From a virus: a stretch of DNA of 64,000 nucleotides. The notes beneath the pieces were generated by a model. The model saw only the letters and a program-made list of their open reading frames with translations, made no database searches and was not told the DNA's origin. The stretch lies in the IMG/VR virus record IMGVR_UViG_3300046804_003780; one strand, written 5' to 3'. The translations under genes and the position numbers were made by a program. The first letter of the stretch is position 1, and every line of letters begins with the position of its first letter. Shown here in pieces: positions 11,790 through 61,266 of this stretch.

Positions 11790-13214
11790 TCACTTTTTGA
11801 GGCTGTTAAGCATAGCTTTTAATTTAGCACTCTGTATATCTGCGTTTATTTTAGGAATATCTTGCACAGAATCCTGTAATTCGCTGTTATGCGTTGGGGA
11901 CACATTGCTTGAGGGTTTTAGTCTGGACATGATGTCATTAGGACTAGGTTGTGGATTGTTAAACTTTGTACCAGCAGACTGTCCATCTTCTCCCGAATCT
12001 GTGATTCTTAATGTTTCCACATTGAACTCTAAATCTATCTTAGTGCCTACCCCTGAACTGCTACGTGTTTTCATAAGTTGAATTTGATACTGCCCGCGTT
12101 CACGCATACTGCGGCTTGTAAAAATACCAAACACATTATCTGCTGTATTAATCTTACTGATGCCGCCTGAAATGTGACTATGATCAAACTCAATTTCTTC
12201 TACCGCACTGCGATTTAATTGACTAGCTGTAACTAGCAGCACATTCAATTCTTTAGACAAATTACGCAATTCTTCCGACACATACTTGTCCTTAATGAAC
12301 AAGTCTGATGGGCTGACCTTTGCGCTGACAGGCATAAGAAGATCAAGATAGTCGATGCAAAGAAAATCAATCTTTGCTCCAGTCTTAATCTCATATTCCT
12401 TACAATATGCCCGTAAGTCATTTACTGTACTCTGTGCTGGCAAATACTTAATTTGTAATTTACCAGCTTTCTTTGCCAACATCTTGACTTTCATTTCAAT
12501 GTCATCAATGCTTTTAAAAATATCACGGCTGCTAGTTTCTGTCATCATACTGTCTATACGCATTGAACATAAGCCTTCGCTAAGTTCCAATGATACATAG
12601 ATACCAGTTAATCCTGCTTGACTCCAGTTCACTGCAAGATTTTGCATAAACAAACTCTTACCTGAACCTGAACCCCCTGCAAAGATTTGTAATTCACCTC
12701 GATTAAACCCACCATATAGTTTGCTATCGACTGTAGCCCAACCTGTACTAATTTGTCCGTTATTGTTTTTTAATGCCATTAATCTTGAACGTGGATCAGC
12801 GAAATAATCAGTACCCATATCTTTTGTTATGCTGATTTGAACCGCATCCTTTATTAATTTTTCTACAGGATCATATTGACCTTTTTCTAATAAATCTGCT
12901 GATTTAAGTATTGCTCTTTCTAATTCTTGTCTACGTGTGAATTTTTCAAACTCGTCCAGAAACCATTCAAAGTGGCCTTGACTCAATTCGGGTATTGCTT
13001 GAATTTCAATTCCGCAAATAGCTAATACTTGGTCTTGTTCAGGTAATACATTATATTTTTCAGAATGCTCTTGAAAAAATTTAGCGACTGGTCTCAATGA
13101 TTTATCAAAGTTTTCTGCATTCATGATGTTAGATACTCTAGTATATAATTCACCATTCGTAATCATCATGCGCAAAAAAAGTTTTTGTACATCTATATTA
13201 TAATCAGTTACCAA
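11790..13214 (-). CDS. Replicative DNA helicase (T4 gp41/DnaB-like)
   Basis: Walker A GGSGSGKS, SLELSE, IDYLDL, TASQLNR, KTR. Confidence 0.95.
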   Translation of the reverse strand: MVTDYNIDVQKLFLRMMITNGELYTRVSNIMNAENFDKSLRPVAKFFQEHSEKYNVLPEQDQVLAICGIEIQAIPELSQGHFEWFLDEFEKFTRRQELERAILKSADLLEKGQYDPVEKLIKDAVQISITKDMGTDYFADPRSRLMALKNNNGQISTGWATVDSKLYGGFNRGELQIFAGGSGSGKSLFMQNLAVNWSQAGLTGIYVSLELSEGLCSMRIDSMMTETSSRDIFKSIDDIEMKVKMLAKKAGKLQIKYLPAQSTVNDLRAYCKEYEIKTGAKIDFLCIDYLDLLMPVSAKVSPSDLFIKDKYVSEELRNLSKELNVLLVTASQLNRSAVEEIEFDHSHISGGISKINTADNVFGIFTSRSMRERGQYQIQLMKTRSSSGVGTKIDLEFNVETLRITDSGEDGQSAGTKFNNPQPSPNDIMSRLKPSSNVSPTHNSELQDSVQDIPKINADIQSAKLKAMLNSLKK

Positions 13215-14169
13215 TTCTCTTCCTCATCATTTCTATTTTTATTTTACTTGTTGTTGCACTTTGTATTATACTTAACAGTGTAGCTAATTTGCCATATTTT
13301 ATTACTGCGTCATTAACATCTTTTACGTCCGGGTCCCAATCGGGCAGACTCACTTTAAAGCCTACTTCCAATGCTCTGTCACATGTTTCAAGTCCGGTTT
13401 TATCTCTATCTGGAACAAATATTATTTCTCTGTTTAGTTGTTTTAAAAAACGAACTTGGTCATCATTAATTGTATTATGTGTCAGTGCTAGCCCATTTAT
13501 ACTTAATGCGTCAAAAATGCCTTCCATTAATAATGCTACTTGCCAGTTTGGTTTTTGTTCGTCGTATCCAAAAACATAACCTGGCTGTTGATCATTAATA
13601 TACTTAGGGGCTCTGTCATCTAAAAATCTACTTGTATGTCCCACTATTTCATTATTGTACAGATATGGAATTATAATCCTGTTAGCGTTTCTTCCTTCAT
13701 CATTTGGCGCTACATAAAAGTTATAATGCTTATGATTCACTTTTCTTGTTTGTAAATAATCAATATATTTTTTATGAATTGGATCCGTGTCATCTAAAAG
13801 TACGCAGTCAGGAAGTTTTTTTTGTTTGAAAATTAATGGTTTTTCTTTAACAAACTTTTTACTAAAATCTAAAATATCCTTATTCTGCAGACTTTCAATA
13901 TTCCAACGTTGTATTTGAGTTTCATCAATTCCGCACCAACTTAATAATTCTCTAGTTCGTTTTGTGATACTTCTGCCTAACTCATAATGGCAACTGAATG
14001 AACAATTAAAACAATTATATGTCCAATTATTACCGTCAAATTTGATTCCGCCTCTATGTCGCTTATCGGGCTTATGCCCACGTTTGTCGCAGCATACCGC
14101 ATTAAAACTATACCAGCCGCTTTGGGTTAATTTTTTTTTGTTTGGAATAACAGTTAGGATATCAAACAT
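13204..14169 (-). CDS. DNA primase (gp61-like, Zn ribbon + Toprim)
   Basis: CC..YNCFNC Zn motif, RIIIP, EGIFDA, PDRD, KDVND. Confidence 0.9.
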   Translation of the reverse strand: MFDILTVIPNKKKLTQSGWYSFNAVCCDKRGHKPDKRHRGGIKFDGNNWTYNCFNCSFSCHYELGRSITKRTRELLSWCGIDETQIQRWNIESLQNKDILDFSKKFVKEKPLIFKQKKLPDCVLLDDTDPIHKKYIDYLQTRKVNHKHYNFYVAPNDEGRNANRIIIPYLYNNEIVGHTSRFLDDRAPKYINDQQPGYVFGYDEQKPNWQVALLMEGIFDALSINGLALTHNTINDDQVRFLKQLNREIIFVPDRDKTGLETCDRALEVGFKVSLPDWDPDVKDVNDAVIKYGKLATLLSIIQSATTSKIKIEMMRKRIGN

Positions 14170-14217: not shown

Positions 14218-14964
14218 TTATCTTGCCAAAATATGTGCAACAGTTCCGCCAGTTGATGTGAATTGAAGTTGGATATATGGATGAAATCCTGTTACTGTCG
14301 TTCCTAACGTGTTAGTTTCAGCCACAAAATTTCCCAATGATTCAATTGTGTACCAATCTGCATCAACTGTAGTTGATCCTAGTATATTGATATTACCAGA
14401 ATAATTACTTAAAGATGTTTGTAGAGTAATTTTACTCGCACCATTTAATCCTAATACGCTGCTGTAGTATGTAGTTCCTGAATTAGATATTTCCCCATGG
14501 CTTGGTATAGTAACACGTGTGCTAGGCACATGTTTAGGAAGAATGCCGTCCATTATTTGACACACACCCCTTGCATCTGCTTCGCTATTAGTAAAGATGG
14601 GTAAAGTTAAATTACCATCTACTATATCTAAACTGAAGCTTCCTATTTGGGCATCAATTTCCATTAACTCAGCCTGCGTCACTGTTAAGTTTGCAAGACC
14701 CTTAAGGGGTAACGTTGGATTAACTGTTTTTTGTATATCAACACTAGTTCCATCTGAGTTTATAAATCTAAATGTAATTTGTTTTCCTGTCAAATCGATT
14801 GATTTTTGCTCCTGATTTAGGAATTGAAATTGTATTTTATTATCTACCCCTTTATTTAGGGTCAAGTTTTTTGAGTACACGATTTGATATCTCCTAGGTG
14901 AATCACCCTCAAATAGGACGACTTGATATTTTGGTGTATATTGATAAACGTTTGTTGAGTACAC
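14218..14964 (-). CDS. Probable virion structural protein (Ig-like/baseplate-type)
   Basis: Beta-rich; KGVDNKIQFQFLNQEQKSIDL pattern; GTG start. Confidence 0.45.
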   Translation of the reverse strand: MYSTNVYQYTPKYQVVLFEGDSPRRYQIVYSKNLTLNKGVDNKIQFQFLNQEQKSIDLTGKQITFRFINSDGTSVDIQKTVNPTLPLKGLANLTVTQAELMEIDAQIGSFSLDIVDGNLTLPIFTNSEADARGVCQIMDGILPKHVPSTRVTIPSHGEISNSGTTYYSSVLGLNGASKITLQTSLSNYSGNINILGSTTVDADWYTIESLGNFVAETNTLGTTVTGFHPYIQLQFTSTGGTVAHILAR

Positions 14965-15062
14965 TTTTCAGTCCTTTTGTTTATTTATTCAACTAAATAT
15001 GCTATACGTTTAATAAATATTTTGGTCATAATAAACGATAAATAATCCAAGATTGTAAGAAA

Positions 15063-15440
15063 ATGCACAACGACTTTTTTAAAAAATTATCAGAAAATCA
15101 TCCTTTTATAACAGTTTGTTCCTATTCAGGTCAAGACTACGTAGGTATAATACAAAACCGTGATGATATTGTTACAACTATATATGATTACGGTTCCATA
15201 GTACAAAATGAAATGCGTGAGCGTTTTTTAGAACTTGGGGAAATTTGGTGGTGGGAAAGTAACCGACTTATACCAATCAATATGTTTCTTAGAGAAGAAT
15301 GGGCACCATTTAAAGCTTTTTTAAGGACATTTAATAATAAAAGTTTAGATATTATTCATGGCCCAGTTTGTAGTATGAGTGATTTACATAAGAAAAAAAG
15401 CAAACGTAGGAGCATCACTTTAGTCCAACGTATGCCTTAA
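15063..15440 (+). CDS. Hypothetical protein
   Basis: ORF track; TAAATA upstream on +; natural composition. Confidence 0.65.
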   Translation: MHNDFFKKLSENHPFITVCSYSGQDYVGIIQNRDDIVTTIYDYGSIVQNEMRERFLELGEIWWWESNRLIPINMFLREEWAPFKAFLRTFNNKSLDIIHGPVCSMSDLHKKKSKRRSITLVQRMP

Positions 15441-15998
15441 ACGTTCAAGATAGTTCATATGTACAACCACTAAATGTGCATATGCAACACTATGACTTTT
15501 CTTAAAGCTATATCCATCTTCAGTTTTATCCCATACCGTCTTTGATACTTCACTCCAAGGTTTTCCTAATAAATGTTTTTTTGCTGGACGTATACATGCT
15601 AAAAACATCGCTAGTCTAGGAATACTATCTACAGGTTCTGGCATTTTTTGTAAATTATTATAATGGTTTCCTAAATGAACTAACTGTTCGACAAATTCCT
15701 TATCTTTTAATAAATCCCAATTAGGAATGTTCATTAAGTTTAATAACTCTTGTTCGGTTTTGATTTCATTATATACGTGAACATTTAGTAAATCTAGTTT
15801 TAGATATCCTCTTTCCTCAGCCTCAACGTAGTCAATATTAGCCATATCATGAAGTGCATCATATGGTATTTCTGTCACGTATACTCCCGTATTGTGTTTA
15901 CGCATTGGACTTACATTTCTCATAGCTGCAGGAATGTGTTTAATATGTTGAAGTATCAAATCACGATTACCAAAGTCTATGTCAATATCAAAGTTCAT
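15420..15998 (-). CDS. Miniature DNA polymerase III alpha (DnaE) catalytic-core-like protein
   Basis: DIDIDF, HNTGVY, GYLKLDLL, IRP and GYSFKKSHSVAYA correspond to DnaE palm/finger motifs. Confidence 0.85.
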   Translation of the reverse strand: MNFDIDIDFGNRDLILQHIKHIPAAMRNVSPMRKHNTGVYVTEIPYDALHDMANIDYVEAEERGYLKLDLLNVHVYNEIKTEQELLNLMNIPNWDLLKDKEFVEQLVHLGNHYNNLQKMPEPVDSIPRLAMFLACIRPAKKHLLGKPWSEVSKTVWDKTEDGYSFKKSHSVAYAHLVVVHMNYLERLRHTLD

Positions 15999-16561
15999 TT
16001 AAGTGCAAAACCCTTGTCCATTAATTTTTTATATGCATCTTGTACAACCATTGCTTGGTGTGCTGCATCTTCTACCGCTTTGTGTGTAGTCTTTGTACTA
16101 TATTTTTTATCTTTCAAACTAACACCAGCAATTTCAAATAATGTTCTTGTGTCACGCACTGTATAAAAAGGCCAAGGAATGGGATTAGGTCTTTCAGTCA
16201 ATGTTTGACGCATAGCCGTTTCCATTACTACTACATCAAATGGTGCACCATGACTCCATACTGCTTGTCGATTCCAACAAAATTTATAAAGTTTCTCCAT
16301 ACAATCTTTCAATGGCTCTCTATCATTGTCACCCATAGCCTCTTCTAGTGCTGCAGGATTTTGTGTACTCCACCAACGGATGGTATCATCATTGATAACA
16401 CGATTGTAAATTTCTGTTTGATCTTCAAGAGTAGGTCTTAGTTCTAATTTTTCAACAATACCATCGCCTCTTGGATCAAATCTTACTGCACCAATTGTAA
16501 GTATAACACAGTAAGGGCTTGTGTCAAGGCTTTCAATATCAATCATGATATGATTAGCCAT
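15995..16561 (-). CDS. DEDDh 3'-5' exonuclease
   Basis: MIDIESL, WSHGAPFD, RDTRT, HKAVEDA. Confidence 0.9.
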   Translation of the reverse strand: MANHIMIDIESLDTSPYCVILTIGAVRFDPRGDGIVEKLELRPTLEDQTEIYNRVINDDTIRWWSTQNPAALEEAMGDNDREPLKDCMEKLYKFCWNRQAVWSHGAPFDVVVMETAMRQTLTERPNPIPWPFYTVRDTRTLFEIAGVSLKDKKYSTKTTHKAVEDAAHQAMVVQDAYKKLMDKGFALK

Positions 16562-16838
16562 AAAAATCTTTCTTCAATATATTAACAACATCTGCATATT
16601 CTGAATCTTTCTTTTGTTTTTGCCAACGATGCAACCAAGGCGTGTTATCACATTCAATGATATGTTTAATTACTTCAGTGCGGCTACTAGATTCAATTGC
16701 TTCATGCAATGAAAAACACATTACAGGATTACCCCAATGATATACTACAATAGCCATTGGGTCGGTTGGATGCATGTTCCAAAGAAATTCTTGATTATGA
16801 TGATCGTCTAATTTCGATAAATCTTTTAAATAACTCAT
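16554..16838 (-). CDS. Hypothetical protein
   Basis: ORF track; overlapping start/stop. Confidence 0.55.
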   Translation of the reverse strand: MSYLKDLSKLDDHHNQEFLWNMHPTDPMAIVVYHWGNPVMCFSLHEAIESSSRTEVIKHIIECDNTPWLHRWQKQKKDSEYADVVNILKKDFYG

Positions 16839-17023
16839 TTATTTGCAGGTTTCGTTTTGATAAGACAAAGTACAGTATGATCTTTTTGCTTTAACCATTC
16901 TTCTCTTGCTTTCATACATTCTTCAAGTGTTGGATATTCTTTATTGTAAACAAATTGAATTTTGGGTGGCGGGTCTGCCCATAATTGAACACTTAAAATC
17001 CAAGTTACGATAATTTCATTCAT
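16835..17023 (-). CDS. Small two-Cys protein (paralog family A)
   Basis: Hydrophobic N-terminus, YPTLEEC...C. Confidence 0.6.
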   Translation of the reverse strand: MNEIIVTWILSVQLWADPPPKIQFVYNKEYPTLEECMKAREEWLKQKDHTVLCLIKTKPANK

Positions 17024-17181
17024 TGCATCACCTTATATCTAGTGCATTTTGGGGCGAAAGGATATTCTCTATAAAAATCTGCCCAACGTTGACACTCACT
17101 CATTGTATCGTATTCTTGTTTATGATACAACTTGGGAGGGTCACTAGAAAGAAGCATTACTGTTAAAACATATATATACAT
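17020..17181 (-). CDS. Small two-Cys protein (paralog family A)
   Basis: Likely start MYIYVL at 17181; YDTMSEC...C. Confidence 0.6.
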   Translation of the reverse strand: MYIYVLTVMLLSSDPPKLYHKQEYDTMSECQRWADFYREYPFAPKCTRYKVMQ

Positions 17182-17182
17182 A

Positions 17183-17461
17183 TCATCCCCATACCAAAAG
17201 AAAAGCAGTAATTTCTTTTCTATCTTTAAATTTAAACATATCAAATGATATTCTTTTTCCGCATTTAGCCATTTCACACCATTCCTGCACAGGAAGTAAA
17301 TCTTCTTCTCTTAATCCAGTTGGTGTAATAGCTCCATGTGCATATACGAGGTTGGCTCGTAACACTAGACCCTTAACTTTATCCTCTTCCCAAACTAATT
17401 TTTTAGTACGCAGCATCTCTGTCAACTTTTCAATTAATTCATTAGTATCGTCTTGTTTCAT
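17183..17461 (-). CDS. Small protein with C-terminal F..E...F.L.W motif (family B)
   Basis: Ends FKFKDRKEITAFLLVWG. Confidence 0.6.
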   Translation of the reverse strand: MKQDDTNELIEKLTEMLRTKKLVWEEDKVKGLVLRANLVYAHGAITPTGLREEDLLPVQEWCEMAKCGKRISFDMFKFKDRKEITAFLLVWG

Positions 17462-17682
17462 GCCCACTTTAATGTAAACCAAGTTGCATGTGCTTCCTCA
17501 TAAAATATAAACACAGTATGTTCAGGTGCGACATAATCACCACTCCAATCTTGATATTTGGCTTGGTTATATTGAAAATCAAAATCCTTATGTTGAATCA
17601 TTCCAGCCTCACGCATTTCTTTGACTATATCAATAATCTCAGAGGGTTTTTTAAATTTGAGAACAATCTCTATCAACTCCAC
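17458..17682 (-). CDS. Small protein (family B)
   Basis: Ends FIFYEEAHATWFTLKWA. Confidence 0.6.
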   Translation of the reverse strand: MELIEIVLKFKKPSEIIDIVKEMREAGMIQHKDFDFQYNQAKYQDWSGDYVAPEHTVFIFYEEAHATWFTLKWA

Positions 17683-17882
17683 CTCAGCGTAAACAAAATC
17701 AATTCTTCTTCACTTGTAAACTCAATCACTGCTCCTTTAAAAGCAAATTCACCTTTAGATAAATGTTTTGTGCACCAATCTTTTAAGTCATTTTCGTAAT
17801 GCATCCAGTACAAAAAATCTGTTAGGATAATATAGCCGCTTCCATCTTTAAGTGCACCTTTACTTACAATATATGTTTCCAT
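17673..17882 (-). CDS. Small protein (family B)
   Basis: Ends IEFTSEEELILFTLRWS. Confidence 0.6.
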   Translation of the reverse strand: METYIVSKGALKDGSGYIILTDFLYWMHYENDLKDWCTKHLSKGEFAFKGAVIEFTSEEELILFTLRWS

Positions 17883-18575
17883 TTACCATTTTAATTCTTG
17901 TAACAAGGTTTTTACCTCTGTTACTTCGTTTTCTAGTTTTGAAAATTTAATCGCCCACTGTACAGGATTGATATAGTCGTATATCATTTTAATTAAATCT
18001 TCGGATAACTCATCTAAGAACTTTTTTCCACTTTCACTTTGATACAGCACCCATGGACTAATTTTCCCGCTAGTTATTGCATAACATATTTTACTTTTGC
18101 TGCCATAGCGCAAATAATCGTTTGGTTGTATATTTTCAACTTGTGCCAAATCTAAGCACGTTTCAATACTACGATGAACTGCGTCTAGTGGATTTTCTGT
18201 TTTGCAATAGTCAATTAGGTATTCTGTGTATTGTCTATCACTTGTCCAGTTGTCAATTTTTACGTTTTCTCTAAGGTAGTAATCCACTAATCTTGATACG
18301 TTAAGTGCATTTATGTCTACGCAATAGTTTCCAAACTTTACAAATGCTGTATAGTATGCTGATTTTATAAATTCTTCATATTTTTTTTCTTTTTTTGCCG
18401 TGCTGTGTTTTTTATAAAACTGCACGAAACTTTGATATCCAATTTGATTACCTCTTCTGTCACGTTCTAACCAACGATGTTTGTATTCGCAGATGTGTTT
18501 TAACATCGTACTTTCTCTTACAAAAGTACGTTTACAAAATTCACATCCATAATTAATATCCAAGATTTTTTTCAT
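17883..18575 (-). CDS. Zn-finger-containing hypothetical protein
   Basis: CEFCKRTFVRESTMLKHIC. Confidence 0.6.
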   Translation of the reverse strand: MKKILDINYGCEFCKRTFVRESTMLKHICEYKHRWLERDRRGNQIGYQSFVQFYKKHSTAKKEKKYEEFIKSAYYTAFVKFGNYCVDINALNVSRLVDYYLRENVKIDNWTSDRQYTEYLIDYCKTENPLDAVHRSIETCLDLAQVENIQPNDYLRYGSKSKICYAITSGKISPWVLYQSESGKKFLDELSEDLIKMIYDYINPVQWAIKFSKLENEVTEVKTLLQELKW

Positions 18576-45630: not shown

Positions 45631-48510
45631 ATGAGTTGGCCAGTATCCCCTACCAATGGGCAGCAAGTAGAAATCAATGGTATTCTATATGAGTATAGTT
45701 CAACTGACGGTGTTTGGAACCGCATAGGATTTGTTCCTACTGGAATATCTTTACCGTTTTTACAAACTCCAAATTTAACCGTAACCAACCTTGCTGATTT
45801 AGGTAACGTAGGTAACGTTAGAATTACCGGGGGAACAGCAAATTACATCTTAAGAACTGACGGAGCAGGTAATTTAACCTGGATACCTCAGGCTGCACAA
45901 TCTGCTGCAGGTAATGCAACTGAAATACAATTTAATACAGGTGGAGTTTTTACTGCCGATCAAAATCTAAGATTTTTTACTGGTAACAGCACATTAAGCA
46001 CAACAAACGTTGCTGCTGTAATTACTACTGCAAGCCAGCCCTATATAACAAGCTTAGGTACACTTAATGGCGTTACAGTATCAGGTAACACAAATACCGG
46101 TAATATTAGTGTATCAGGAAATATTACGTCTGCTAATGCTAATTTAGGTAATGCAGCAGTCGCTAATTTCTTTACAGGAACATTAACTACTGCAGCACAA
46201 CCAAATATTACCAGCTTAGGTATTCTGAATGGGCTATCAATATTAGGAAATATTAATGGTAATATTTTACCGAATGCGAATAACACGTTCACTTTAGGTT
46301 CTAGCACTCAAAGATACAACTATGTGTATACCTCAGCAAATGGTTTGTTAATTGATAATGTATCATTGTTTTCAAATAGTGGAAATTTAACAAGTAATGG
46401 AAACATTTTTACAACTGGAAGATTTATATCTAATTTGGTAACAGGTAATGCACCATTGATCGTAAGCAGTAACACAATGGTTGCTAATTTAAATGCTAAT
46501 CTGTTGCAAGGTTTTTCAGTAAGTTCTGCAAATGTAGCCAACACGATTGTGGCGCGTGATGCCAATAATAATTTTTCAGCAAATATAATTACTGCCAATA
46601 TTACAGGTAATTCAACCACAGCAGGTACAGTAGTAACTAATGCACAGCCTAATATAACAAGTGTAGGTGTATTAACAACTCTTAGCATATCAGGAAATGT
46701 GGTATCGAGTAACGCTAATTTAGGAAATACTGTTACTGCTAACTTTTTTGTTGGAAGCGGTAACAGACTTAGTAATATTGTAGCAGGCAACATTAATGGG
46801 ATAGTAGCTAATGCATTTTATTCAGACAACGCAGGTAATGCACAAACTGCAACAGCAGCCACTCATGCTGCAACATCCAACACTGTTGTTGATGCTAATC
46901 AATCCAATATAACAAGTGTTGGTACATTAACCAGCTTAAGTGTAGCAGGAAATATAAATTCAGGTAATGCTACATTAGGAAATACTGTAACTGCAAATTA
47001 TTTTGTAGGTAATATAACAGGAAACGTTACAGGTAATATAAATTTGCCAGGTAGCAATACACATATACTTTTTAATAATGATGGTGTGTTAGGTGCAACA
47101 AATGGTTTCACATTTAGTTCAGTAAGCAATGCAGTAACTATTGCAGGAAACGTAACCGCAGGTAATGCAAGCTTAGGAAATTTAGTTGTTGCTAACTTCT
47201 TTCAAGGAAGCGGTAACAGATTATCAAACATCAATGGTGCAAATGTAAGTCAAGTTGCCAATGCGAATTTTGCATCATTTGCGAATATTGTTAATTTAGC
47301 TAACACAGCTAATATTTCAAACTTTGCTGGTCGAGTAACGATAAATGCGCAACCAAATATAACTAGTGTAGGCAATTTAAGCAATTTAATAGTAAGTACA
47401 GGTGCTTTAAATTCTTCAAGTCCAGTTCAATTTAATCAAATTTGGAATAATGTAAATCAGTTATTTACAGGTATCAGGCAAAATATTACTGATAATAATA
47501 GTAATATTGACAGTTTACTAGTGGACTTACGTGTAGGTAATACTACAATGTTTAGTGTTACAAAAAATGGTACAGCAAATGCATCAAATATAAACACAAC
47601 GTTCATAGCAGGAACACTTACAACTACAAGTCAACCTAATATAACTAGCGTTGGTAATTTACTATCGCTGACGGTGAACGGTAATATAAATGCTCCTAAT
47701 GTGTATGCGAATTTCTTTGGTGCTTTAAATGGGAATATAGGAGCAAACGTTCCGAACAGTGCAATTTTTACAAATGTAACAGTTACGTCAACTGCTAATG
47801 TTACCGGCAATATTAGAGTTGGAAATGCTAACTTAGGTAATTTAGCTGTAGCTAACTTCTTTAGCGGCGACGGTGGATTTTTAAGTAATGTAAGTGTACC
47901 GGCTAATACACAAATTATAAACGGTAATAGTAATGTAATAGTACAAGCCAATGCGAACGTGCGCATATCTGCAAATGGTATAACTCAACTTATAGTTACA
48001 TCAACAGGTGGGAATGTTACCGGTACACTTAGCGTTGGTGGCAATTTAACCGCTGCTAATGTTTCAACTGGGAATATAACTACAACAAGTGCATTATCTG
48101 TAGTAGGAACAACCAATTTAAATGTAACAAATTTTTCAAATATTGCAACTTTTCAACAAACAACAGATGTATTAAATCAAAAAGTAAATGCTTCAGGTAC
48201 TGTAACTCATAATTTTCAAACTGGTGCAATATTTTATCATGCAAACGTTGCAAATAATTTTACTGTCAACTTAACAAACGTACCAACTACAGCAAATAGG
48301 ACAATTGTTGTGCCAATAATTATTCAACAAGGCGTGAGTGCTTATATTGCAAATCAATTTCAAATTGATGGATTGTTTCAATCTATCAATTGGTTAGGCA
48401 ATGTAATACCTGTAGGGACGGCTAATGCAGTTGATGTTGTTGGTTTTACTTTAATACGAACAACATCTAATTGGACAGTGTTAGGACAATTAACAACTTA
48501 CGGCGGTTAA
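45631..48510 (+). CDS. Tail fibre protein (Asn-rich repeats)
   Basis: WPVSPTNGQ N-terminus; AQPNITSVG repeats; shares repeats with the 1..7140 protein. Confidence 0.8.
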   Translation: MSWPVSPTNGQQVEINGILYEYSSTDGVWNRIGFVPTGISLPFLQTPNLTVTNLADLGNVGNVRITGGTANYILRTDGAGNLTWIPQAAQSAAGNATEIQFNTGGVFTADQNLRFFTGNSTLSTTNVAAVITTASQPYITSLGTLNGVTVSGNTNTGNISVSGNITSANANLGNAAVANFFTGTLTTAAQPNITSLGILNGLSILGNINGNILPNANNTFTLGSSTQRYNYVYTSANGLLIDNVSLFSNSGNLTSNGNIFTTGRFISNLVTGNAPLIVSSNTMVANLNANLLQGFSVSSANVANTIVARDANNNFSANIITANITGNSTTAGTVVTNAQPNITSVGVLTTLSISGNVVSSNANLGNTVTANFFVGSGNRLSNIVAGNINGIVANAFYSDNAGNAQTATAATHAATSNTVVDANQSNITSVGTLTSLSVAGNINSGNATLGNTVTANYFVGNITGNVTGNINLPGSNTHILFNNDGVLGATNGFTFSSVSNAVTIAGNVTAGNASLGNLVVANFFQGSGNRLSNINGANVSQVANANFASFANIVNLANTANISNFAGRVTINAQPNITSVGNLSNLIVSTGALNSSSPVQFNQIWNNVNQLFTGIRQNITDNNSNIDSLLVDLRVGNTTMFSVTKNGTANASNINTTFIAGTLTTTSQPNITSVGNLLSLTVNGNINAPNVYANFFGALNGNIGANVPNSAIFTNVTVTSTANVTGNIRVGNANLGNLAVANFFSGDGGFLSNVSVPANTQIINGNSNVIVQANANVRISANGITQLIVTSTGGNVTGTLSVGGNLTAANVSTGNITTTSALSVVGTTNLNVTNFSNIATFQQTTDVLNQKVNASGTVTHNFQTGAIFYHANVANNFTVNLTNVPTTANRTIVVPIIIQQGVSAYIANQFQIDGLFQSINWLGNVIPVGTANAVDVVGFTLIRTTSNWTVLGQLTTYGG

Positions 48511-50471: not shown

Positions 50472-50514
50472 TTTATTGCAAAATATAAATTTTCTTAAAA
50501 AGGAGACACACACT

Positions 50515-51540
50515 ATGAAAAAACTATTTGCAGTTTTATCTTTTGCAGTAGCAGGTATAGCAACAGCAGCAGAATTTACTGGCGCTGGAGCTACATTCCC
50601 ATTTCCAATCTACGCTAAATGGGCGGAAGCCTATAAAGCACAAACTGGAATCGGCTTAAACTATCAAAGTATCGGTAGTGGCGGCGGCATTCGTCAAATC
50701 AAAGCAAAGACAGTTGACTTTGGTGCAAGCGACATGCCATTAAAGAAAGAAGAATTAGATAAAGAAGGTCTTGTTCAATTTCCAGCAATTATTGGCGGTG
50801 TAGTACCAGTTGTTAATTTAGATGGCATACAACCTGGTCAATTAAAGTTGACACCAGAAATAATTGCAAATATACATTTAGGTAAAATTACTAAATGGAA
50901 TGATAAAGCTATTGCCGAAATTAATTCAGGTGTAAATTTACCTGCATTAAATATCACAGTTATTCATCGTGCAGATGGTTCAGGCACTACATTCATTTGG
51001 ACAAACTTTCTAAGCAAAGCTAATGCAGACTTTCAAAAGATAGTAGGCGAAGGTACTGCTGTTAAATGGCCAGTTGGTGTAGGTGGTAAAGGTAATGAAG
51101 GTGTTGCAGCACAAGTACAACGCATTAAGGGTAGTTTTGGTTATGTAGAATATGCATTTGCTAAAAGAAATAAAATTGCACATACACAATTAAAGAATCG
51201 TGACGGTAATTTTGTACAACCAGATGATAGTACATTTAAGGCAGCAACAGCAAATGCAGATTGGGTTAATGCTCCAGGAATGTATTTGTTACTAACATGG
51301 CAAAATGGAAAAGATACTTGGCCAGCAACAGGTGCTAGTTTCATCTTAATGCATAAGCAACAAGCAGATGCATTAACAGGTCGTGCAGTTCTCAAATTCT
51401 TTGATTGGAGTTACAAGAACGGCAGTCAAATGGCATCTGAATTAGAATATGTACATATGCCACAAGATGTAATTAAGCTTGTTCAGGAAAATTGGAAGAA
51501 AGACTTCCGTGGTCCCGATGGTAACGCAATTTGGAAATAA
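50515..51540 (+). CDS. pstS: Phosphate ABC transporter periplasmic binding protein
   Basis: GAGATFP, YQSIGSGGG, DFGASD, RADGSGTT, GKGNEG; signal peptide; AGGAG SD. Confidence 0.97.
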   Translation: MKKLFAVLSFAVAGIATAAEFTGAGATFPFPIYAKWAEAYKAQTGIGLNYQSIGSGGGIRQIKAKTVDFGASDMPLKKEELDKEGLVQFPAIIGGVVPVVNLDGIQPGQLKLTPEIIANIHLGKITKWNDKAIAEINSGVNLPALNITVIHRADGSGTTFIWTNFLSKANADFQKIVGEGTAVKWPVGVGGKGNEGVAAQVQRIKGSFGYVEYAFAKRNKIAHTQLKNRDGNFVQPDDSTFKAATANADWVNAPGMYLLLTWQNGKDTWPATGASFILMHKQQADALTGRAVLKFFDWSYKNGSQMASELEYVHMPQDVIKLVQENWKKDFRGPDGNAIWK

Positions 51541-51550
51541 GGAAAATTAA

Positions 51551-52957
51551 ATGAAAACTTTTACAAAAATAGCATTAAGCCTTGCATTAGCTTTTAGTAT
51601 TCCCGCATATGCTGATGAATATCTAGACACTTTAAAAATTTTAAAGGATAAAGGCATTTTGACACAGACAGAGTATGATGTTAAAGTCAAAGAATATGAA
51701 GATAAAGCAGAAAACAAAAAATTTTCTGATCAAAGGATAGATAAAGATGTCAGCGACAACAACAAATACAGAATCGCAAGAATCAACGACGGATCTGTAT
51801 CAGAAAACGGAATCGGACTTAAATCTAAGGATGGGAACAACACTCTCAACCTTACGGGTAGACTACATATGGACTATCGTCAGTACGACCCCACTTATGG
51901 TGCAGGTCAAACCACAGATTCGTATCAAAATGTAGCTGAAGTTCGTCGTGCTAGATTTGGTGTTCGTGGTCAGTTTGCTAAAGACTTCAAGTATCAATTA
52001 CTCGCCAACTTTGGTAATGATGCTGGTTCTAGTGCAACTACGACAACTGCTGATGAAATGTGGGTAAACTATGCTGCCAATCCTGAAATGCAATTTCAGT
52101 TTGGGTTATTTAAAATGCCATTTAGTTTAGAACAGTTAACAAGTTCAAATAATATAGATTTTATGGAGCGTAGTCTTATTGGACAAACCGAAGGAGAATT
52201 TATTCCTGCAAAAGAAACAGGCTTTATGATTCATGGAATACCTAAGCCTGGTTTACTCTATCAAGTAGCAATAAGTCGTGGTCGTGGTAACAAAGATGCA
52301 GCTAACGACGGCTTTGACTATATCGGTCGTGTTGTAACTAACATTGCTGAATTACAAGGTAGTAAAGCTTATGTGTTACACTTAGGTGCAGCATATAGTA
52401 CAGGTGAGATTAAAGGCGGTGTTACACCAGCAAGTGGTAGAACAGAATCACGCAGTCAATCAGCCTGGTTCACAGGTCCAGCGTTAAGTGGTGCTACTAC
52501 AAGAACACGCCAAGGTCTTGAAGCGGCTTTTGCATATAATGGATTGAAGTTACAGGGTGAACAGTTCCAATTTAATTATGATCCTACTACAGGTAAAGAT
52601 CAGAAAATAAATGGATACTATGTACAAGCTTTGTATAACTTGACAGGTGAAAGTCACAACTATAAAGACGGTATCTTCAATTGGATCAAACCTAATAATC
52701 CAACTGATAAGGGTGGCCGCGGTGCATGGCAAGTTGGTGTCCGTATGAGTGAGTTTGATGCTAGTGATATTGCTGTAGTTGCTGGCAAATCTAATCGTGC
52801 CACTGCTATGACCTATGGAGTCACTTGGTTCTGTACAGACAATTTACGCTTCATGTTAAACTATGTAGACACAAAGTTTGACAGTTTAGTAGGAAGTTCC
52901 GGAAGTCGTGTGACTGGCGATAAAGCAGTTATGTTTAGAAGTCAATTAAGTTTTTAA
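51551..52957 (+). CDS. Phosphate-selective outer-membrane porin (OprO/OprP family)
   Basis: Signal peptide, VRRARFGVRG, FKMPFSLEQLTSS, FMERS, C-terminal Phe. Confidence 0.9.
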   Translation: MKTFTKIALSLALAFSIPAYADEYLDTLKILKDKGILTQTEYDVKVKEYEDKAENKKFSDQRIDKDVSDNNKYRIARINDGSVSENGIGLKSKDGNNTLNLTGRLHMDYRQYDPTYGAGQTTDSYQNVAEVRRARFGVRGQFAKDFKYQLLANFGNDAGSSATTTTADEMWVNYAANPEMQFQFGLFKMPFSLEQLTSSNNIDFMERSLIGQTEGEFIPAKETGFMIHGIPKPGLLYQVAISRGRGNKDAANDGFDYIGRVVTNIAELQGSKAYVLHLGAAYSTGEIKGGVTPASGRTESRSQSAWFTGPALSGATTRTRQGLEAAFAYNGLKLQGEQFQFNYDPTTGKDQKINGYYVQALYNLTGESHNYKDGIFNWIKPNNPTDKGGRGAWQVGVRMSEFDASDIAVVAGKSNRATAMTYGVTWFCTDNLRFMLNYVDTKFDSLVGSSGSRVTGDKAVMFRSQLSF

Positions 52958-57651: not shown

Positions 57652-59850
57652 TTAGGGTCTTATACTATTAAATTTTGTCTGTAACCATTCCCAATCATAA
57701 GTAAATTTAAGTTTATCAAAGTCACCATTTACAGATTCATAATATTCGACTGCATGTTTGGCTCCTTTAATAGCATACTCTGCAAAGTCACCATAAGCAG
57801 TATTTAGCCAAATAGTTAATCTATCTTTGCTTATTTTGTCGTTTAGTGTTTCCACATTGTATTTTAACTTAATAACTTCTCTAAAAGCAGTTCTCCAAGT
57901 ATCCCACTCACTAGTATTAAATACCCCAATACCTGAATTTATGTCGATCACAGCATGGGGACTATCTAATGTAAAGTCCAGTCCTTTACCTGTAGTGTTT
58001 AAAGTTAATCTTTTATTATTTGCAACTATTGCCATATGTCCGTATTCCAATCCATTTACAGGATTAGTGGCCCGAAATATGTAATGTCGTGCTGTACACA
58101 TACGATCAGGTTGCCAGCTAAAATCAAAATTAGGATTTACTCTGCATTTTCCGTTTATTAGAAAATACCACGGTGTTGATGCCATTTTTGCTGCTTCATG
58201 TTGACTAGCAACACGACCTTTAATATCTTTAAGTCCAATTATATTATTAGGTAAACCTTTAGCTAATGTTAAGAGATGTTCATAATTTTCTTCTGCCCCC
58301 TTTTCACCGTTACTCAAAAAAATTATGTCTAGCGGTTTGTTTTTATATCCTGCTGTGTGATATTTTATGTAAGGATAATCTTGTAATTTGTCATAAAGAT
58401 AAGGTATAGCTTCTTTGGGCACAATTGCATGAGTATTATCAATAATATGAATATTCGAATTAGAGTCTAGCTTAGGCATAAATTCTACATGATTTAATTC
58501 TCCTAATCCTAATTGAATGTAATCTGTTTCTGTTTTTGAATTTACAAGGGCATCAAATAAGCTATCCTCAACAGGAACTTCATCAAGCATCAATTTAACA
58601 ATATCTACATCCATAAATTTATAATTGGTTGCACCTTTTACTTTATAGTGTACTGTAGGCATATCTTTGCTAGAAGACCATTGATTTCCAAATACGTAAA
58701 TGTATGGTGGGTCGAAAGGATTAGGAACCCAACTATAATCAATAATTAATTTTGGTTTTAAAAGTCGCCATGCTCTGTTTTCTTTATCAGGTAATAATTT
58801 TGCCTTAATGTTATTAATATATTTTTTTTCTGTTGCTCCTTTTACTTTGTAAATTAGAGTGGGCATTACCTCAGCATCATACCACTGATTACCAAATACA
58901 TAGATATAGGGAGGTTCTGTTTCATCAGGATGCCAGCTATAGTCAAACTCAATATTATTTTTTAAAGGTCTAAAACATCTATTTTGCGGGTCCTGTAGTC
59001 TAGTAACTTTTTGAAAATTAACAAACTTTGTTCCTAACGGATTACCTTTTACAAACTTCGGTCCTCCTGTCTTTTGCCATTGAGTACCAAATTCATACTC
59101 CATTGGTGGTTCATGTGGATTAGGGCACCAACTATAATCAAAATTACTATCATCAATATTTTTTGGAATAATCCAGTTTTCTTTGGATGGTAGTAATGTT
59201 GCTTTTATAATATTCACATATTTTTTTTCTGTTGCCCCTTTTACTCTATATTGAAATGTAGGCATTACCTCAGCATCATACCACTGATTACCAAACACGT
59301 GAATATACGGAGGGTCATATGGATTAGGTCTCCAACTTTTATCAATATTATCAATAGAAGCATTGAATATTAATTGTTTCCAACATTTATCATCTAGATT
59401 AGGTAACAGTGTTGCTTTATAATTATTTACATATTTTTTTTCTGTGGCTCCTTTGACCCTATATTGAAATGTAGGCATTTCTTCAGCACCATACCATTGA
59501 TTACCAAATATGTAAATGTAGGGAGGTTCTGTTTCATCCGGATGCCAACTGAAATCTATAGATGCGTCGGGCACTAAAGGTCTCCAACCTCTATCATTTT
59601 CATTTGATAATTTTATTGCGTTTTGAAAACTATGATATTTTATTCCTTCATTTTCAGGTACTATAAAACGAGGTCCTCCCGTTTTTTGCCATTGTGTACC
59701 AAACTGATGAATATATGGTCTTTCGTAAACGAATGGACGCCACGTAAAATCGAACGTACTTGTATCTAAATTATCAGGTATTTCCCAATAACCTAATTCA
59801 TTAAGCTGTTTTCTTCTTTCTAAATCATTTAAGTCAGTAATTTGTAACAT
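57652..59850 (-). CDS. Repeat-containing protein with C-terminal glycosyltransferase-like domain
   Basis: About six W-x-P...P-Y-I-x-x-FG-x-QW repeats; C-terminal DIIFLS..WRTAFRE domain is paralogous to 61268..62209. Confidence 0.65.
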   Translation of the reverse strand: MLQITDLNDLERRKQLNELGYWEIPDNLDTSTFDFTWRPFVYERPYIHQFGTQWQKTGGPRFIVPENEGIKYHSFQNAIKLSNENDRGWRPLVPDASIDFSWHPDETEPPYIYIFGNQWYGAEEMPTFQYRVKGATEKKYVNNYKATLLPNLDDKCWKQLIFNASIDNIDKSWRPNPYDPPYIHVFGNQWYDAEVMPTFQYRVKGATEKKYVNIIKATLLPSKENWIIPKNIDDSNFDYSWCPNPHEPPMEYEFGTQWQKTGGPKFVKGNPLGTKFVNFQKVTRLQDPQNRCFRPLKNNIEFDYSWHPDETEPPYIYVFGNQWYDAEVMPTLIYKVKGATEKKYINNIKAKLLPDKENRAWRLLKPKLIIDYSWVPNPFDPPYIYVFGNQWSSSKDMPTVHYKVKGATNYKFMDVDIVKLMLDEVPVEDSLFDALVNSKTETDYIQLGLGELNHVEFMPKLDSNSNIHIIDNTHAIVPKEAIPYLYDKLQDYPYIKYHTAGYKNKPLDIIFLSNGEKGAEENYEHLLTLAKGLPNNIIGLKDIKGRVASQHEAAKMASTPWYFLINGKCRVNPNFDFSWQPDRMCTARHYIFRATNPVNGLEYGHMAIVANNKRLTLNTTGKGLDFTLDSPHAVIDINSGIGVFNTSEWDTWRTAFREVIKLKYNVETLNDKISKDRLTIWLNTAYGDFAEYAIKGAKHAVEYYESVNGDFDKLKFTYDWEWLQTKFNSIRP
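58862..59295. repeat. 35-bp perfect direct repeat (58862-58896 and 59261-59295) within the repeat protein
   Basis: GGCATTACCTCAGCATCATACCACTGATTACCAAA occurs twice. Confidence 0.9.
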
Positions 59851-61266
59851 TTACTTTATATTTTTCCAGTCATTATATAATTCAATAAATTCGGGAAATA
59901 TTTGTAAAAAATTAGTTCCGCGTCTTTTATCATGCTCATCTACAAACTTTATAAAGTCCTGTCTATTGATGCTTAAATTAGGATTTGGATTGTCAAGCTC
60001 GTGATTTACGATTGTTAAGACTCTTTTTAATTTATCAATTTCATGGTCATAGAATCCCATATAGGCCTGAGAAGGAATTCGTAAACCTATCTCTTTGTGG
60101 TCTTCCATAAACTTTACCTGTTCTTCAATAAAATGTACATAATTTTTTGGTATTATAAATGCTGGTTGATGAGCAGGGAATCTTAAATAGGGTATATCAA
60201 TAGAAAGTACCATTTTACGATTAGCAACTGATATTTCTCTATACTTTTGTCTTATATCTAACACATCTTGTAAAAATGTTTTGAATGATGGTACACTTAA
60301 AATATTGTAGGTGCTAGTTACTGATAAAACTACATTGGGTACTTCAGTAATAAGCCTTTCAATATTTTTAATCCAATCATTGTAATTTAAACCAAAGCGT
60401 GTATATTCTGCTTGTTTACCATGTGCCTCTGCACTTGTAAAAATACGCAGTTTCGATACACATTTATTTTCATCTATTATCTTTAATTTTTCAATAAGTT
60501 TATCAAACAATTCTTTTGGAGGATTTAAATTAGAGTTAATACTGAAACATAATTTAGGATTAGGATTTTCAATGATATAATCTAAAACTTTAAATGTATC
60601 TTTACTTAATATAGGTTCTCCGCCTGTTATTCTAAACTCTAAAAGTTCTTTATACATCTTAGGCCACCAGTCCCAAAACGCATCCATGTATGGATTATGC
60701 TGATTGTTTGGTATTGGTATTTGATTCTTTGTTTTAATCCATTCTAAACTGTTAAAATTTGAAGTAGTTGGATAAGGACCATGTCTTTCAATTTCTTCCA
60801 TCCATTGACTACTTATGTGAGGCATACAATAACTACACTTAAAATTACATACACTACTAAAACTCACCTCAACATAACTTGGATTAACATCATCGTCCCA
60901 AGGTTTGTCACTAATATCTTTAATAAAAGGATAACCCCACATAGGATCTGCGCTTTTATAAATTCTGTCACTATATTGGTTTCCTGCATCCTCTGCTCTC
61001 CAACAATAATCACATTCAGTTGGTCTTATTCCAACTAACATTTGTTTTCTTAATTCTTTTTTGAATTTAGTATTGTGTAGGGCTGAAGGATTTACTGCAA
61101 TTTCTTCTAATGGAACTAGGTGAGTTCCTGGGTGATGACAACTATGAGTGTGTCCATTATGTAAATGCATCGTAACTTGTTTCCACTTAGCAACACAAAA
61201 ACTAGGACTCACTGCGTTAATTTCCTCAGCAGCCTTTGCTAAATGTTTTTGATAATTATCATTCAT
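59851..61266 (-). CDS. Radical SAM protein with N-terminal twitch/SPASM-like Cys motifs
   Basis: CNFKCSYC, TGGEP; FCVAKW, SCHH, CDYCW. Confidence 0.9.
   Translation of the reverse strand: MNDNYQKHLAKAAEEINAVSPSFCVAKWKQVTMHLHNGHTHSCHHPGTHLVPLEEIAVNPSALHNTKFKKELRKQMLVGIRPTECDYCWRAEDAGNQYSDRIYKSADPMWGYPFIKDISDKPWDDDVNPSYVEVSFSSVCNFKCSYCMPHISSQWMEEIERHGPYPTTSNFNSLEWIKTKNQIPIPNNQHNPYMDAFWDWWPKMYKELLEFRITGGEPILSKDTFKVLDYIIENPNPKLCFSINSNLNPPKELFDKLIEKLKIIDENKCVSKLRIFTSAEAHGKQAEYTRFGLNYNDWIKNIERLITEVPNVVLSVTSTYNILSVPSFKTFLQDVLDIRQKYREISVANRKMVLSIDIPYLRFPAHQPAFIIPKNYVHFIEEQVKFMEDHKEIGLRIPSQAYMGFYDHEIDKLKRVLTIVNHELDNPNPNLSINRQDFIKFVDEHDKRRGTNFLQIFPEFIELYNDWKNIK

Follow-up and report, generated by a model that had tools for sequence, protein, structure and literature searches.

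A 192-residue DnaE-like protein of an uncultured phage as the probable C-terminal unit of a split minimal DNA polymerase III alpha

We analysed a stretch of 64,000 nucleotides from an uncultured virus (IMG/VR virus record IMGVR_UViG_3300046804_003780), here called the window, and in particular a minus-strand gene for a 192-residue protein that resembles the catalytic core of bacterial DNA polymerase III (Pol III) alpha. The start of this gene overlaps the end of an exonuclease gene directly upstream. The 192-residue protein is very probably one of the two halves of the split minimal Pol III alpha that was reported for group 2.2 jumbo phages by Iyer, Anantharaman, Krishnan, Burroughs & Aravind in 2021 (Viruses 13:63, PMC7824862); we refer to this half as the C-unit and to the partner half as the N-unit. 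The features of the two overlapping genes are the following.

15420..15998, minus strand: probable C-terminal (Mg2+- and template-binding) unit of a split minimal Pol III alpha, 192 residues, assigned by phrog_11778, profile and fold
Within 15420..15998, minus strand: C-unit residues, namely the catalytic D4, D6 and D69 and the steric-gate H169, from the alignment to E. coli dnaE
15995..16561, minus strand: Rv2179c-like DEDDh 3'-5' exonuclease, 188 residues, directly upstream of the C-unit, assigned by PF16473 and phrog_255
15995..15998, minus strand: ATGA stop/start overlap of the exonuclease and C-unit genes, from the junction sequence and the coordinates of the open reading frames (ORFs)

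The 192-residue protein matched phrog_11778 ('DNA polymerase') over its full length with an E-value of 1.4e-53. In a Pfam scan at E-values up to 0.1 no match was obtained, PF02811, PF07733, PF17657 and PF14579 included, and a phmmer search of the PDB with the single sequence gave only noise. The kinship with DnaE was reached only via a profile of 77 sequences and via structure. A search of 1.84 billion cluster representatives yielded 374 relatives of the C-unit, and 77 full-length relatives with 29-59% identity were aligned (alignment A1). The A1 profile matched the Pol III alpha chains of E. coli, Thermus and Mycobacterium in the PDB with a best E-value of 8.7e-6, and its positions 53-139 and 150-178 corresponded to residues 538-641 and 739-768 of E. 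coli alpha, respectively.

Mapping on the E. coli dnaE sequence placed D401-F-D403-V-D405-F on D4-I-D6-I-D8-F of the C-unit, K553 and D555 on K67 and D69, R639-P640 on R137-P138, and K758-S759-H760 on K167-S168-H169, with FKKSH aligned to FNKSH at 756-760. The active site of Pol III alpha is formed by D401, D403 and D555, and H760 is its invariant steric gate (PMC8485763). Equivalents of the three Mg2+-binding aspartates are all present in the C-unit. It was found that D4, D6, K67, D69, R137 and P138 are invariant in all 77 representatives of A1, and that D8 and H169 are each kept in 76 of them. In this way the window adds residue-level evidence of selection on the active site of the C-unit.

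The AlphaFold2 model of the C-unit was of high confidence, with a predicted local distance difference test score (pLDDT) of 96.1 and a predicted template modelling score of 0.88. Foldseek ranked Pol III alpha chains first for this model with weak E-values of about 2e-3, and VIA-align was needed for clear Z-scores. With VIA-align, residues 1-191 of the C-unit were superimposed on residues 460-841 of Thermus (Taq) alpha with a Z-score of 9.8 and a root-mean-square deviation (rmsd) of 4.0 A over 188 residues; the Z-scores were 8.5 for E. coli alpha 399-781, 9.5 for M. tuberculosis DnaE1 and 7.4 for a PolC-type enzyme. All of the 14 top structural matches were C-family polymerases, and the next, unrelated fold had a Z-score of 3.7. 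The C-unit is Pol III alpha-like, far beyond chance. An earlier, sequence-only reading of the window had noticed the DnaE motifs in the right order within 192 residues, with all three catalytic aspartates retained. Both observations are borne out by the ORF at 15420-15998 on the minus strand, its phrog_11778 match and the conservation of D4, D6 and D69 throughout A1. The structural comparison with Pol III alpha which that reading had proposed as a check gave Z-scores of 8.5-9.8, and only C-family polymerases matched strongly.

Decay of the gene, visible as variable length among homologues, had been named beforehand as an observation that would speak against a functional enzyme. The C-unit measured 187-201 residues in nearly all of the best 120 matches and 179-219 residues across A1. 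These narrow lengths, together with the invariant residues, indicate that the gene is not decaying, and we rejected a pseudogene as an explanation. Homologues with 36-47% identity to the C-unit were present in 96 phage records. Those listed were jumbo phages, among them Phosso, the PA5oct-like phages, Atu_ph07, XacN1, RsoM2USA and the PBECO4/121Q group, and in some GenBank records the protein is labelled 'DnaE-like DNA polymerase III alpha'.

Compared with the bacterial enzyme the C-unit is short of several parts. Residue 1 of the model corresponds to E. coli alpha 398/399, so that the chain starts at the catalytic DxD strand; the PHP domain is absent, and so is the first palm half with its GRGS triphosphate-binding loop. 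The thumb (about 433-510 in E. coli) is replaced by a short linker, approximately 100 residues of the fingers (641-739 in E. coli) are missing, and the protein ends at about E. coli 781, without the clamp-binding, tau-binding and OB regions. Residues 399-781 of E. coli alpha are spanned by 191 residues of the C-unit, with the thumb and the fingers segment gone, which agrees with the internal compaction that had been suspected from the letters of the window.

The missing half of the palm was found in other phage genomes. Searching the complete genomes of Phosso and PAC2 with the PF07733 profile gave a single short match per genome that exceeded the curated cut-off and was confined to about positions 21-97 of the profile; taken over the N-units in general, the matches cover about positions 16-98 of its 260 positions. 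The corresponding ORFs, which we regard as the N-units, code for 177 and 169 residues, respectively, and end in ...VWGVGRGSSVASYVLFLIG...EFLN/K-stop. The counterpart of their C-terminal segment is E. coli 337-392 (GPGRGSGAGS...FERFL), which stops a few residues short of D401, and the N- and C-units abut at one palm loop that corresponds to E. coli 393-398. The N-unit was present exactly once in each of the seven cultured jumbo phage genomes with a C-unit (Phosso, PAC2, Atu_ph07, Vibrio phage 2.275.O, XacN1, PBECO4 and RsoM2USA), at a distance of 4-224 kb from the C-unit. The two families are alike in size, with 7249 C-units and at least 7991 N-units, and each half forms more than 7000 clusters at 90% identity in metagenomes.

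In two IMG/VR fragments whose C-units share 73-74% identity with that of the window, some 42 kb separate the C-unit from a downstream N-unit that has the same orientation. Based on this geometry, the N-unit of the phage studied here is expected approximately 27 kb beyond the left end of the window, which is part of a contig of 141.7 kb. The sequence-only reading had offered one subunit of a split polymerase as a possibility and had placed the other parts in nearby hypothetical genes. The first of these proposals is upheld by the separate N-unit in all seven cultured relatives and by natural fusions of the two halves; the second failed, as the partner is absent from the window and lies tens of kilobases away in the two close relatives and at the distances given above in the cultured phages. 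As a separate observation, the neighbourhood of the N-unit was conserved in distant lineages (L045:1210-2804, L044:386-2037, L003:1195-2576 and L004:1216-2407 in our set of loci). There the N-unit is followed by a protein of 113-153 residues with the conserved start MGK..DM..L...NE.V.AVGNMNVNARGD and then by a GroES/Cpn10-like gene (PF00166, E-value 3.4e-5).

Natural fusions of the N- and C-units were identified as three independent clusters of metagenome proteins (P0157, P0391 and P0392) of 375-376 residues from different sources. They are rare in comparison with the split forms, of which there are more than 7000 for each half. In the fusions, the homology to the N-unit stops at EFIK (residue 180; 34% identity, E-value 6e-19) and the DFDID strand begins 11 residues later; in the combined alignment of N- and C-units (A3) the last 9 or so residues of the N-units are misplaced. 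The AlphaFold model of one fusion had a pLDDT of 83, with values above 90 over most of residues 80-375. It was superimposed on Thermus alpha 291-830 with a Z-score of 22.4 and an rmsd of 2.9 A over 287 residues, and the Z-scores were 21 for PolC and 15.6 for E. coli alpha 271-773, compared with only about 3 for other Pol-beta-like transferases. On this model, the N- and C-units together are the palm and the trimmed fingers of a C-family polymerase. The fusions support the two-halves model and would also be convenient as single-chain constructs for a first assay. Joining of the halves by intein-mediated splicing was considered and rejected, as the alignment of the C-unit to DnaE starts at its residue 1 and the N-unit closes with EFLK. 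No space is left for intein halves, and any assembly must therefore be non-covalent.

The gene directly upstream of the C-unit encodes an exonuclease that matched PF16473 (E-value 3.8e-35, 121.6 bits against a cut-off of 27) and phrog_255 (E-value 1.5e-39). PF16473 was the only family reported in the Pfam scan at E-values up to 0.1, with no DnaQ/PF00929 match. Residues D8, E10, D109, H160 and D165 of the exonuclease do not vary among 32 relatives. On the minus strand the junction has the sequence AAATGAAC, in which the exonuclease stop TGA and the C-unit ATG share the letters ATGA. This is the overlap that the sequence-only reading had described, between 15995-16561 and 15420-15998 on the minus strand, and we propose that through such translational coupling the exonuclease and the C-unit would be made together. 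In IMG/VR loci with a C-unit at least 69% identical to that of the window, the exonuclease adjoined the C-unit upstream in 34 of 34, one of them with a 1-kb insert between the two genes. The adjacency persisted at exonuclease identities of about 59-62%, also where an array of small ORFs further upstream was absent. However, the exonuclease adjoined the C-unit in none of 10 more distant loci (L038-L040, Phosso, PAC2, Atu_ph07, Vibrio phage 2.275.O, XacN1, PBECO4 and RsoM2USA), and of five cultured genomes searched in full, three had no PF16473 match and the remaining two had it only at a large distance from the C-unit. The earlier claim that the C-unit is coupled to a DEDDh exonuclease thus stands within this clade and falls outside it. 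As the coupling is limited to one clade and missing elsewhere, the exonuclease is not an obligate or defining partner of the C-unit; it is a stable, co-translated neighbour within one freshwater clade. A second, independent DEDD-type exonuclease near the mini-polymerase was observed in XacN1, where ORF223 (L049:6868-7461), annotated as 'DNA polymerase III epsilon subunit', is located 2.3 kb downstream of the C-unit.

Taken together, we assign a probability of roughly 0.88 to the reading that the 192-residue protein is the C-terminal half of the minimal Pol III alpha which group 2.2 jumbo phages encode as two proteins, with the N-unit encoded elsewhere in the genome. This assignment is supported directly by homology, fold, residue conservation, the split point, the co-occurrence of the halves and the natural fusions. 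How the two units may assemble and catalyse, and what role they may have, is inferred. The C-unit would supply the second half of the Pol-beta-like palm, with the two-aspartate strand and the strand that carries the third aspartate and the lysine, as well as a shortened fingers module in which the RP motif and the K-S-H helix would contact the incoming deoxynucleoside triphosphate (dNTP). The separate N-unit of about 170 residues would supply the GRGS loop and the first palm strands. The two would assemble non-covalently into a compact DNA-templated DNA polymerase of about 360 residues, which would bind the triphosphate of the dNTP via the GS loop and two metals via D4, D6 and D69, and would exclude ribonucleoside triphosphates via H169. 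As it is without a thumb, a clamp-binding region and an OB fold, the polymerase is probably distributive. It may work beside the family B replicase of these phages, where it could, for instance, fill gaps, take part in repair or extend primers. We speculate that the conserved location of the C-unit gene two genes from the primase and helicase genes would fit short-patch or primer-extension synthesis, comparable to B. subtilis DnaE.

Some results weigh against this assignment. The modelled assembly is one natural fusion chain and not a heterodimer of N- and C-units. No thumb, clamp-binding or OB element that would explain how the enzyme holds DNA was identified. No N-unit was seen in the 64-kb window with GRGS-like regular expressions or with tblastn using the N-units of Phosso and PAC2 and their neighbours; this absence fits the position beyond the left edge that is expected from the two close relatives. 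The fragments of close relatives, at a completeness of only 9-36%, yielded no family B polymerase. In the literature we found no biochemical report on any member of the split minimal Pol III alpha family.

Two other views of the protein itself were considered. It is highly improbable that the 192-residue protein acts alone as a minimal C-family nucleotidyltransferase, a view that the sequence-only reading had put forward alongside the split polymerase. The three metal-binding aspartates and the fingers residues that contact the dNTP are located on one chain, and the model of the C-unit is compact and confident when predicted alone. However, the DxD strand is the first element of the C-unit; both DnaE and the fused homologue take the GS loop and the initial strands of the palm from the stretch equivalent to the N-unit (E. 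coli 271-392). A Pol-beta-like nucleotidyltransferase without the GRGS loop is expected not to bind its nucleotide substrate, and the absence of this palm half makes a stand-alone enzyme unlikely; moreover, an N-unit was present in every complete genome tested, and fusions of the two units exist. It is also improbable, to a lesser degree, that the split enzyme, rather than a DNA polymerase for replication or repair, is a non-templated or specialised nucleotidyltransferase with a task such as tailing or the synthesis of signalling nucleotides or DNA modifications, or a catalytically silent mimic within the replisome. The absence of thumb, clamp-binding and OB elements and the full family B replicase already present in these phages would agree with such a role, and the Pol-beta-like fold serves many non-replicative transferases, which gave weak matches with Z-scores of about 3. 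Nevertheless, the residues that read the dNTP have been retained, among them the steric-gate histidine (in 76 of 77 representatives), as have the fingers helices in contact with primer and template, and the gene is located in a conserved block with the primase and helicase genes. The invariant catalytic residues speak against a silent mimic.

The split Pol III alpha might also include a third protein, if the exonuclease were its dedicated proofreading subunit in an alpha-epsilon-like core without PHP domain. This seems rather unlikely to us, and that the exonuclease was recruited as proofreading partner within the freshwater clade is perhaps slightly more doubtful still. The ATGA coupling, the intact DEDDh residues and the fact that the two genes adjoin in all 34 loci of the clade, despite exonuclease divergence and the variable small ORFs, would be in line with such a function, as would the annotated epsilon-like gene 2.3 kb from the C-unit in XacN1. 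However, the whole block is syntenic and the adjacency may be merely inherited; in none of the 10 distant loci are the two genes adjacent, PF16473 is lacking in three of five cultured genomes, and relatives of the exonuclease are common in small phages without DnaE pieces. The PHP domain, which is the docking site of epsilon in the Pol III core, is absent here. The exonuclease also differs from the epsilon type in the absence of a DnaQ-type domain and in not accompanying the split polymerase in those three genomes. Proofreading for the split polymerase is thus a possible but doubtful role of the exonuclease. If it were true, three polypeptides with about 550 residues in total would form a polymerase-editing core without PHP domain, and no smaller C-family polymerase with proofreading would be known.

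The following genes lie close to the probable split-polymerase gene.

15063..15440, plus strand: convergent gene for a 125-residue protein (phrog_11637, E-value 4.2e-32; no Pfam match)
17883..18575, minus strand: C2H2-type zinc-finger protein, 230 residues (phrog_11058, E-value 3.8e-62)
11790..14169, minus strand: DnaG-type primase (13204-14169) and DnaB-type helicase (11790-13214), assigned by phrog_47, phrog_19 and PF03796

The 3' end of the convergent gene overlaps the 3' end of the C-unit gene by 21 nucleotides. Every locus that extends to this position, Phosso and PAC2 among them, had the convergent gene in tblastn searches, and the annotations of Atu_ph07, Vibrio phage 2.275.O and PBECO4 show a small convergent gene at the equivalent place. 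Across lineages it is the closest-linked neighbour of the C-unit, tighter than the exonuclease, and its product could be an accessory subunit or the linkage could be mere conserved synteny. A search of the ESM Atlas with the 125-residue protein gave only weak glycosyltransferase-like leads, which we did not trust. In L038-L040 (57-59% identity) and in PAC2, which have no exonuclease at this place, the C2H2 gene immediately precedes the C-unit; it is located slightly further upstream in Phosso, Atu_ph07, Vibrio phage 2.275.O, XacN1 and PBECO4. The primase/helicase pair is located downstream of the C-unit and is syntenic in all relatives. The window also codes for UvsW, UvsX and a gp32-like single-stranded DNA-binding protein, followed by terminase and virion proteins, and the T4-like replisome block recognised in the sequence-only reading was confirmed by these assignments. 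A family B polymerase was present in five of five cultured relatives tested and was not among the window ORFs that were scanned. A scan of 14900-17100 for promoters and terminators gave nothing above shuffled sequences, and megablast of 10 kb of the window against 50,697 phage records gave no match.

Some variation was observed within the block. Six small overlapping ORFs of 62-99 residues are located between the C2H2 and exonuclease genes (window positions 16554-17882, minus strand). This array varies among relatives and is absent in some (e.g. L026-L032), and the exonuclease/C-unit pair is constant. At L037:8876-10893 the DnaB-like helicase matched in two pieces approximately 620 bp apart, which suggests an intein, intron or homing-endonuclease insertion. 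At L011:1296-2700 UvsW helicase matched in two overlapping frames (1296-1787 and 1765-2700), which could reflect a frameshift or an assembly error. Elsewhere in the window, three ORFs of 732, 959 and 468 residues (57652-59850, minus strand; 45631-48510, plus strand; 51551-52957, plus strand) had no PHROG match at E-values up to 1e-5. Positions 50476-51540 code for a homologue of a phosphate-transporter subunit, and positions 59851-61266 for a radical-SAM-like protein.

Among known systems, the C-unit of the window resembles most closely the split minimal Pol III alpha of Iyer et al. (PMC7824862). According to that article, the enzyme accompanies a family B polymerase, was proposed to serve one-strand synthesis or repair, and was put forward by its describers as a model of the ancestral C-family polymerase. 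Like the published protein, the window C-unit is a standalone protein of about 190 residues with the C-terminal half of the palm and trimmed fingers, and in the relatives of the window the N-unit is distant from it. The order of the block (UvsW ... C2H2, C-unit, convergent small gene, structural protein, primase, DnaB) is as in the PA5oct-like phages, Phosso, Atu_ph07 and PBECO4. Unlike the published system, the clade of the window has a coupled Rv2179c-like exonuclease directly upstream, a feature not found in the passages of PMC7824862 that were consulted. The window adds a new uncultured member of an enzyme published in 2021 and not a new kind of enzyme, and the clade-specific exonuclease neighbour is a modest extra.

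The palm and fingers core is homologous to that of bacterial DnaE and PolC (E. coli 2HNH, Taq 3E0D, M. tuberculosis DnaE1 5LEW and PolC 3F2B), with which the C-unit has the catalytic triad, the lysine, the RP motif and the steric-gate histidine in common. In comparison to these chains of about 1100 residues, the split enzyme is without the PHP domain, the thumb, the beta-clamp- and tau-binding region and the OB domain, and its palm is divided over two polypeptides. The split DnaE of cyanobacteria is likewise encoded by two distant genes; its halves carry split-intein pieces and are spliced to a full-length chain, whereas the phage halves have no intein and a different split point. The exonuclease of the window belongs to the same DEDDh superfamily as Pol III epsilon (DnaQ), but, unlike epsilon, it is not of the DnaQ/PF00929 type, has no PHP docking site at its disposal and is not universal with the split polymerase. 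The split minimal Pol III alpha represents a predicted bacterial-type polymerase core that is cut to about 360 residues and divided within the palm, in phages that also carry a eukaryote-like family B replicase. It occurs very commonly in metagenomes, and the window offers concrete constructs for a first biochemical test of this enzyme.

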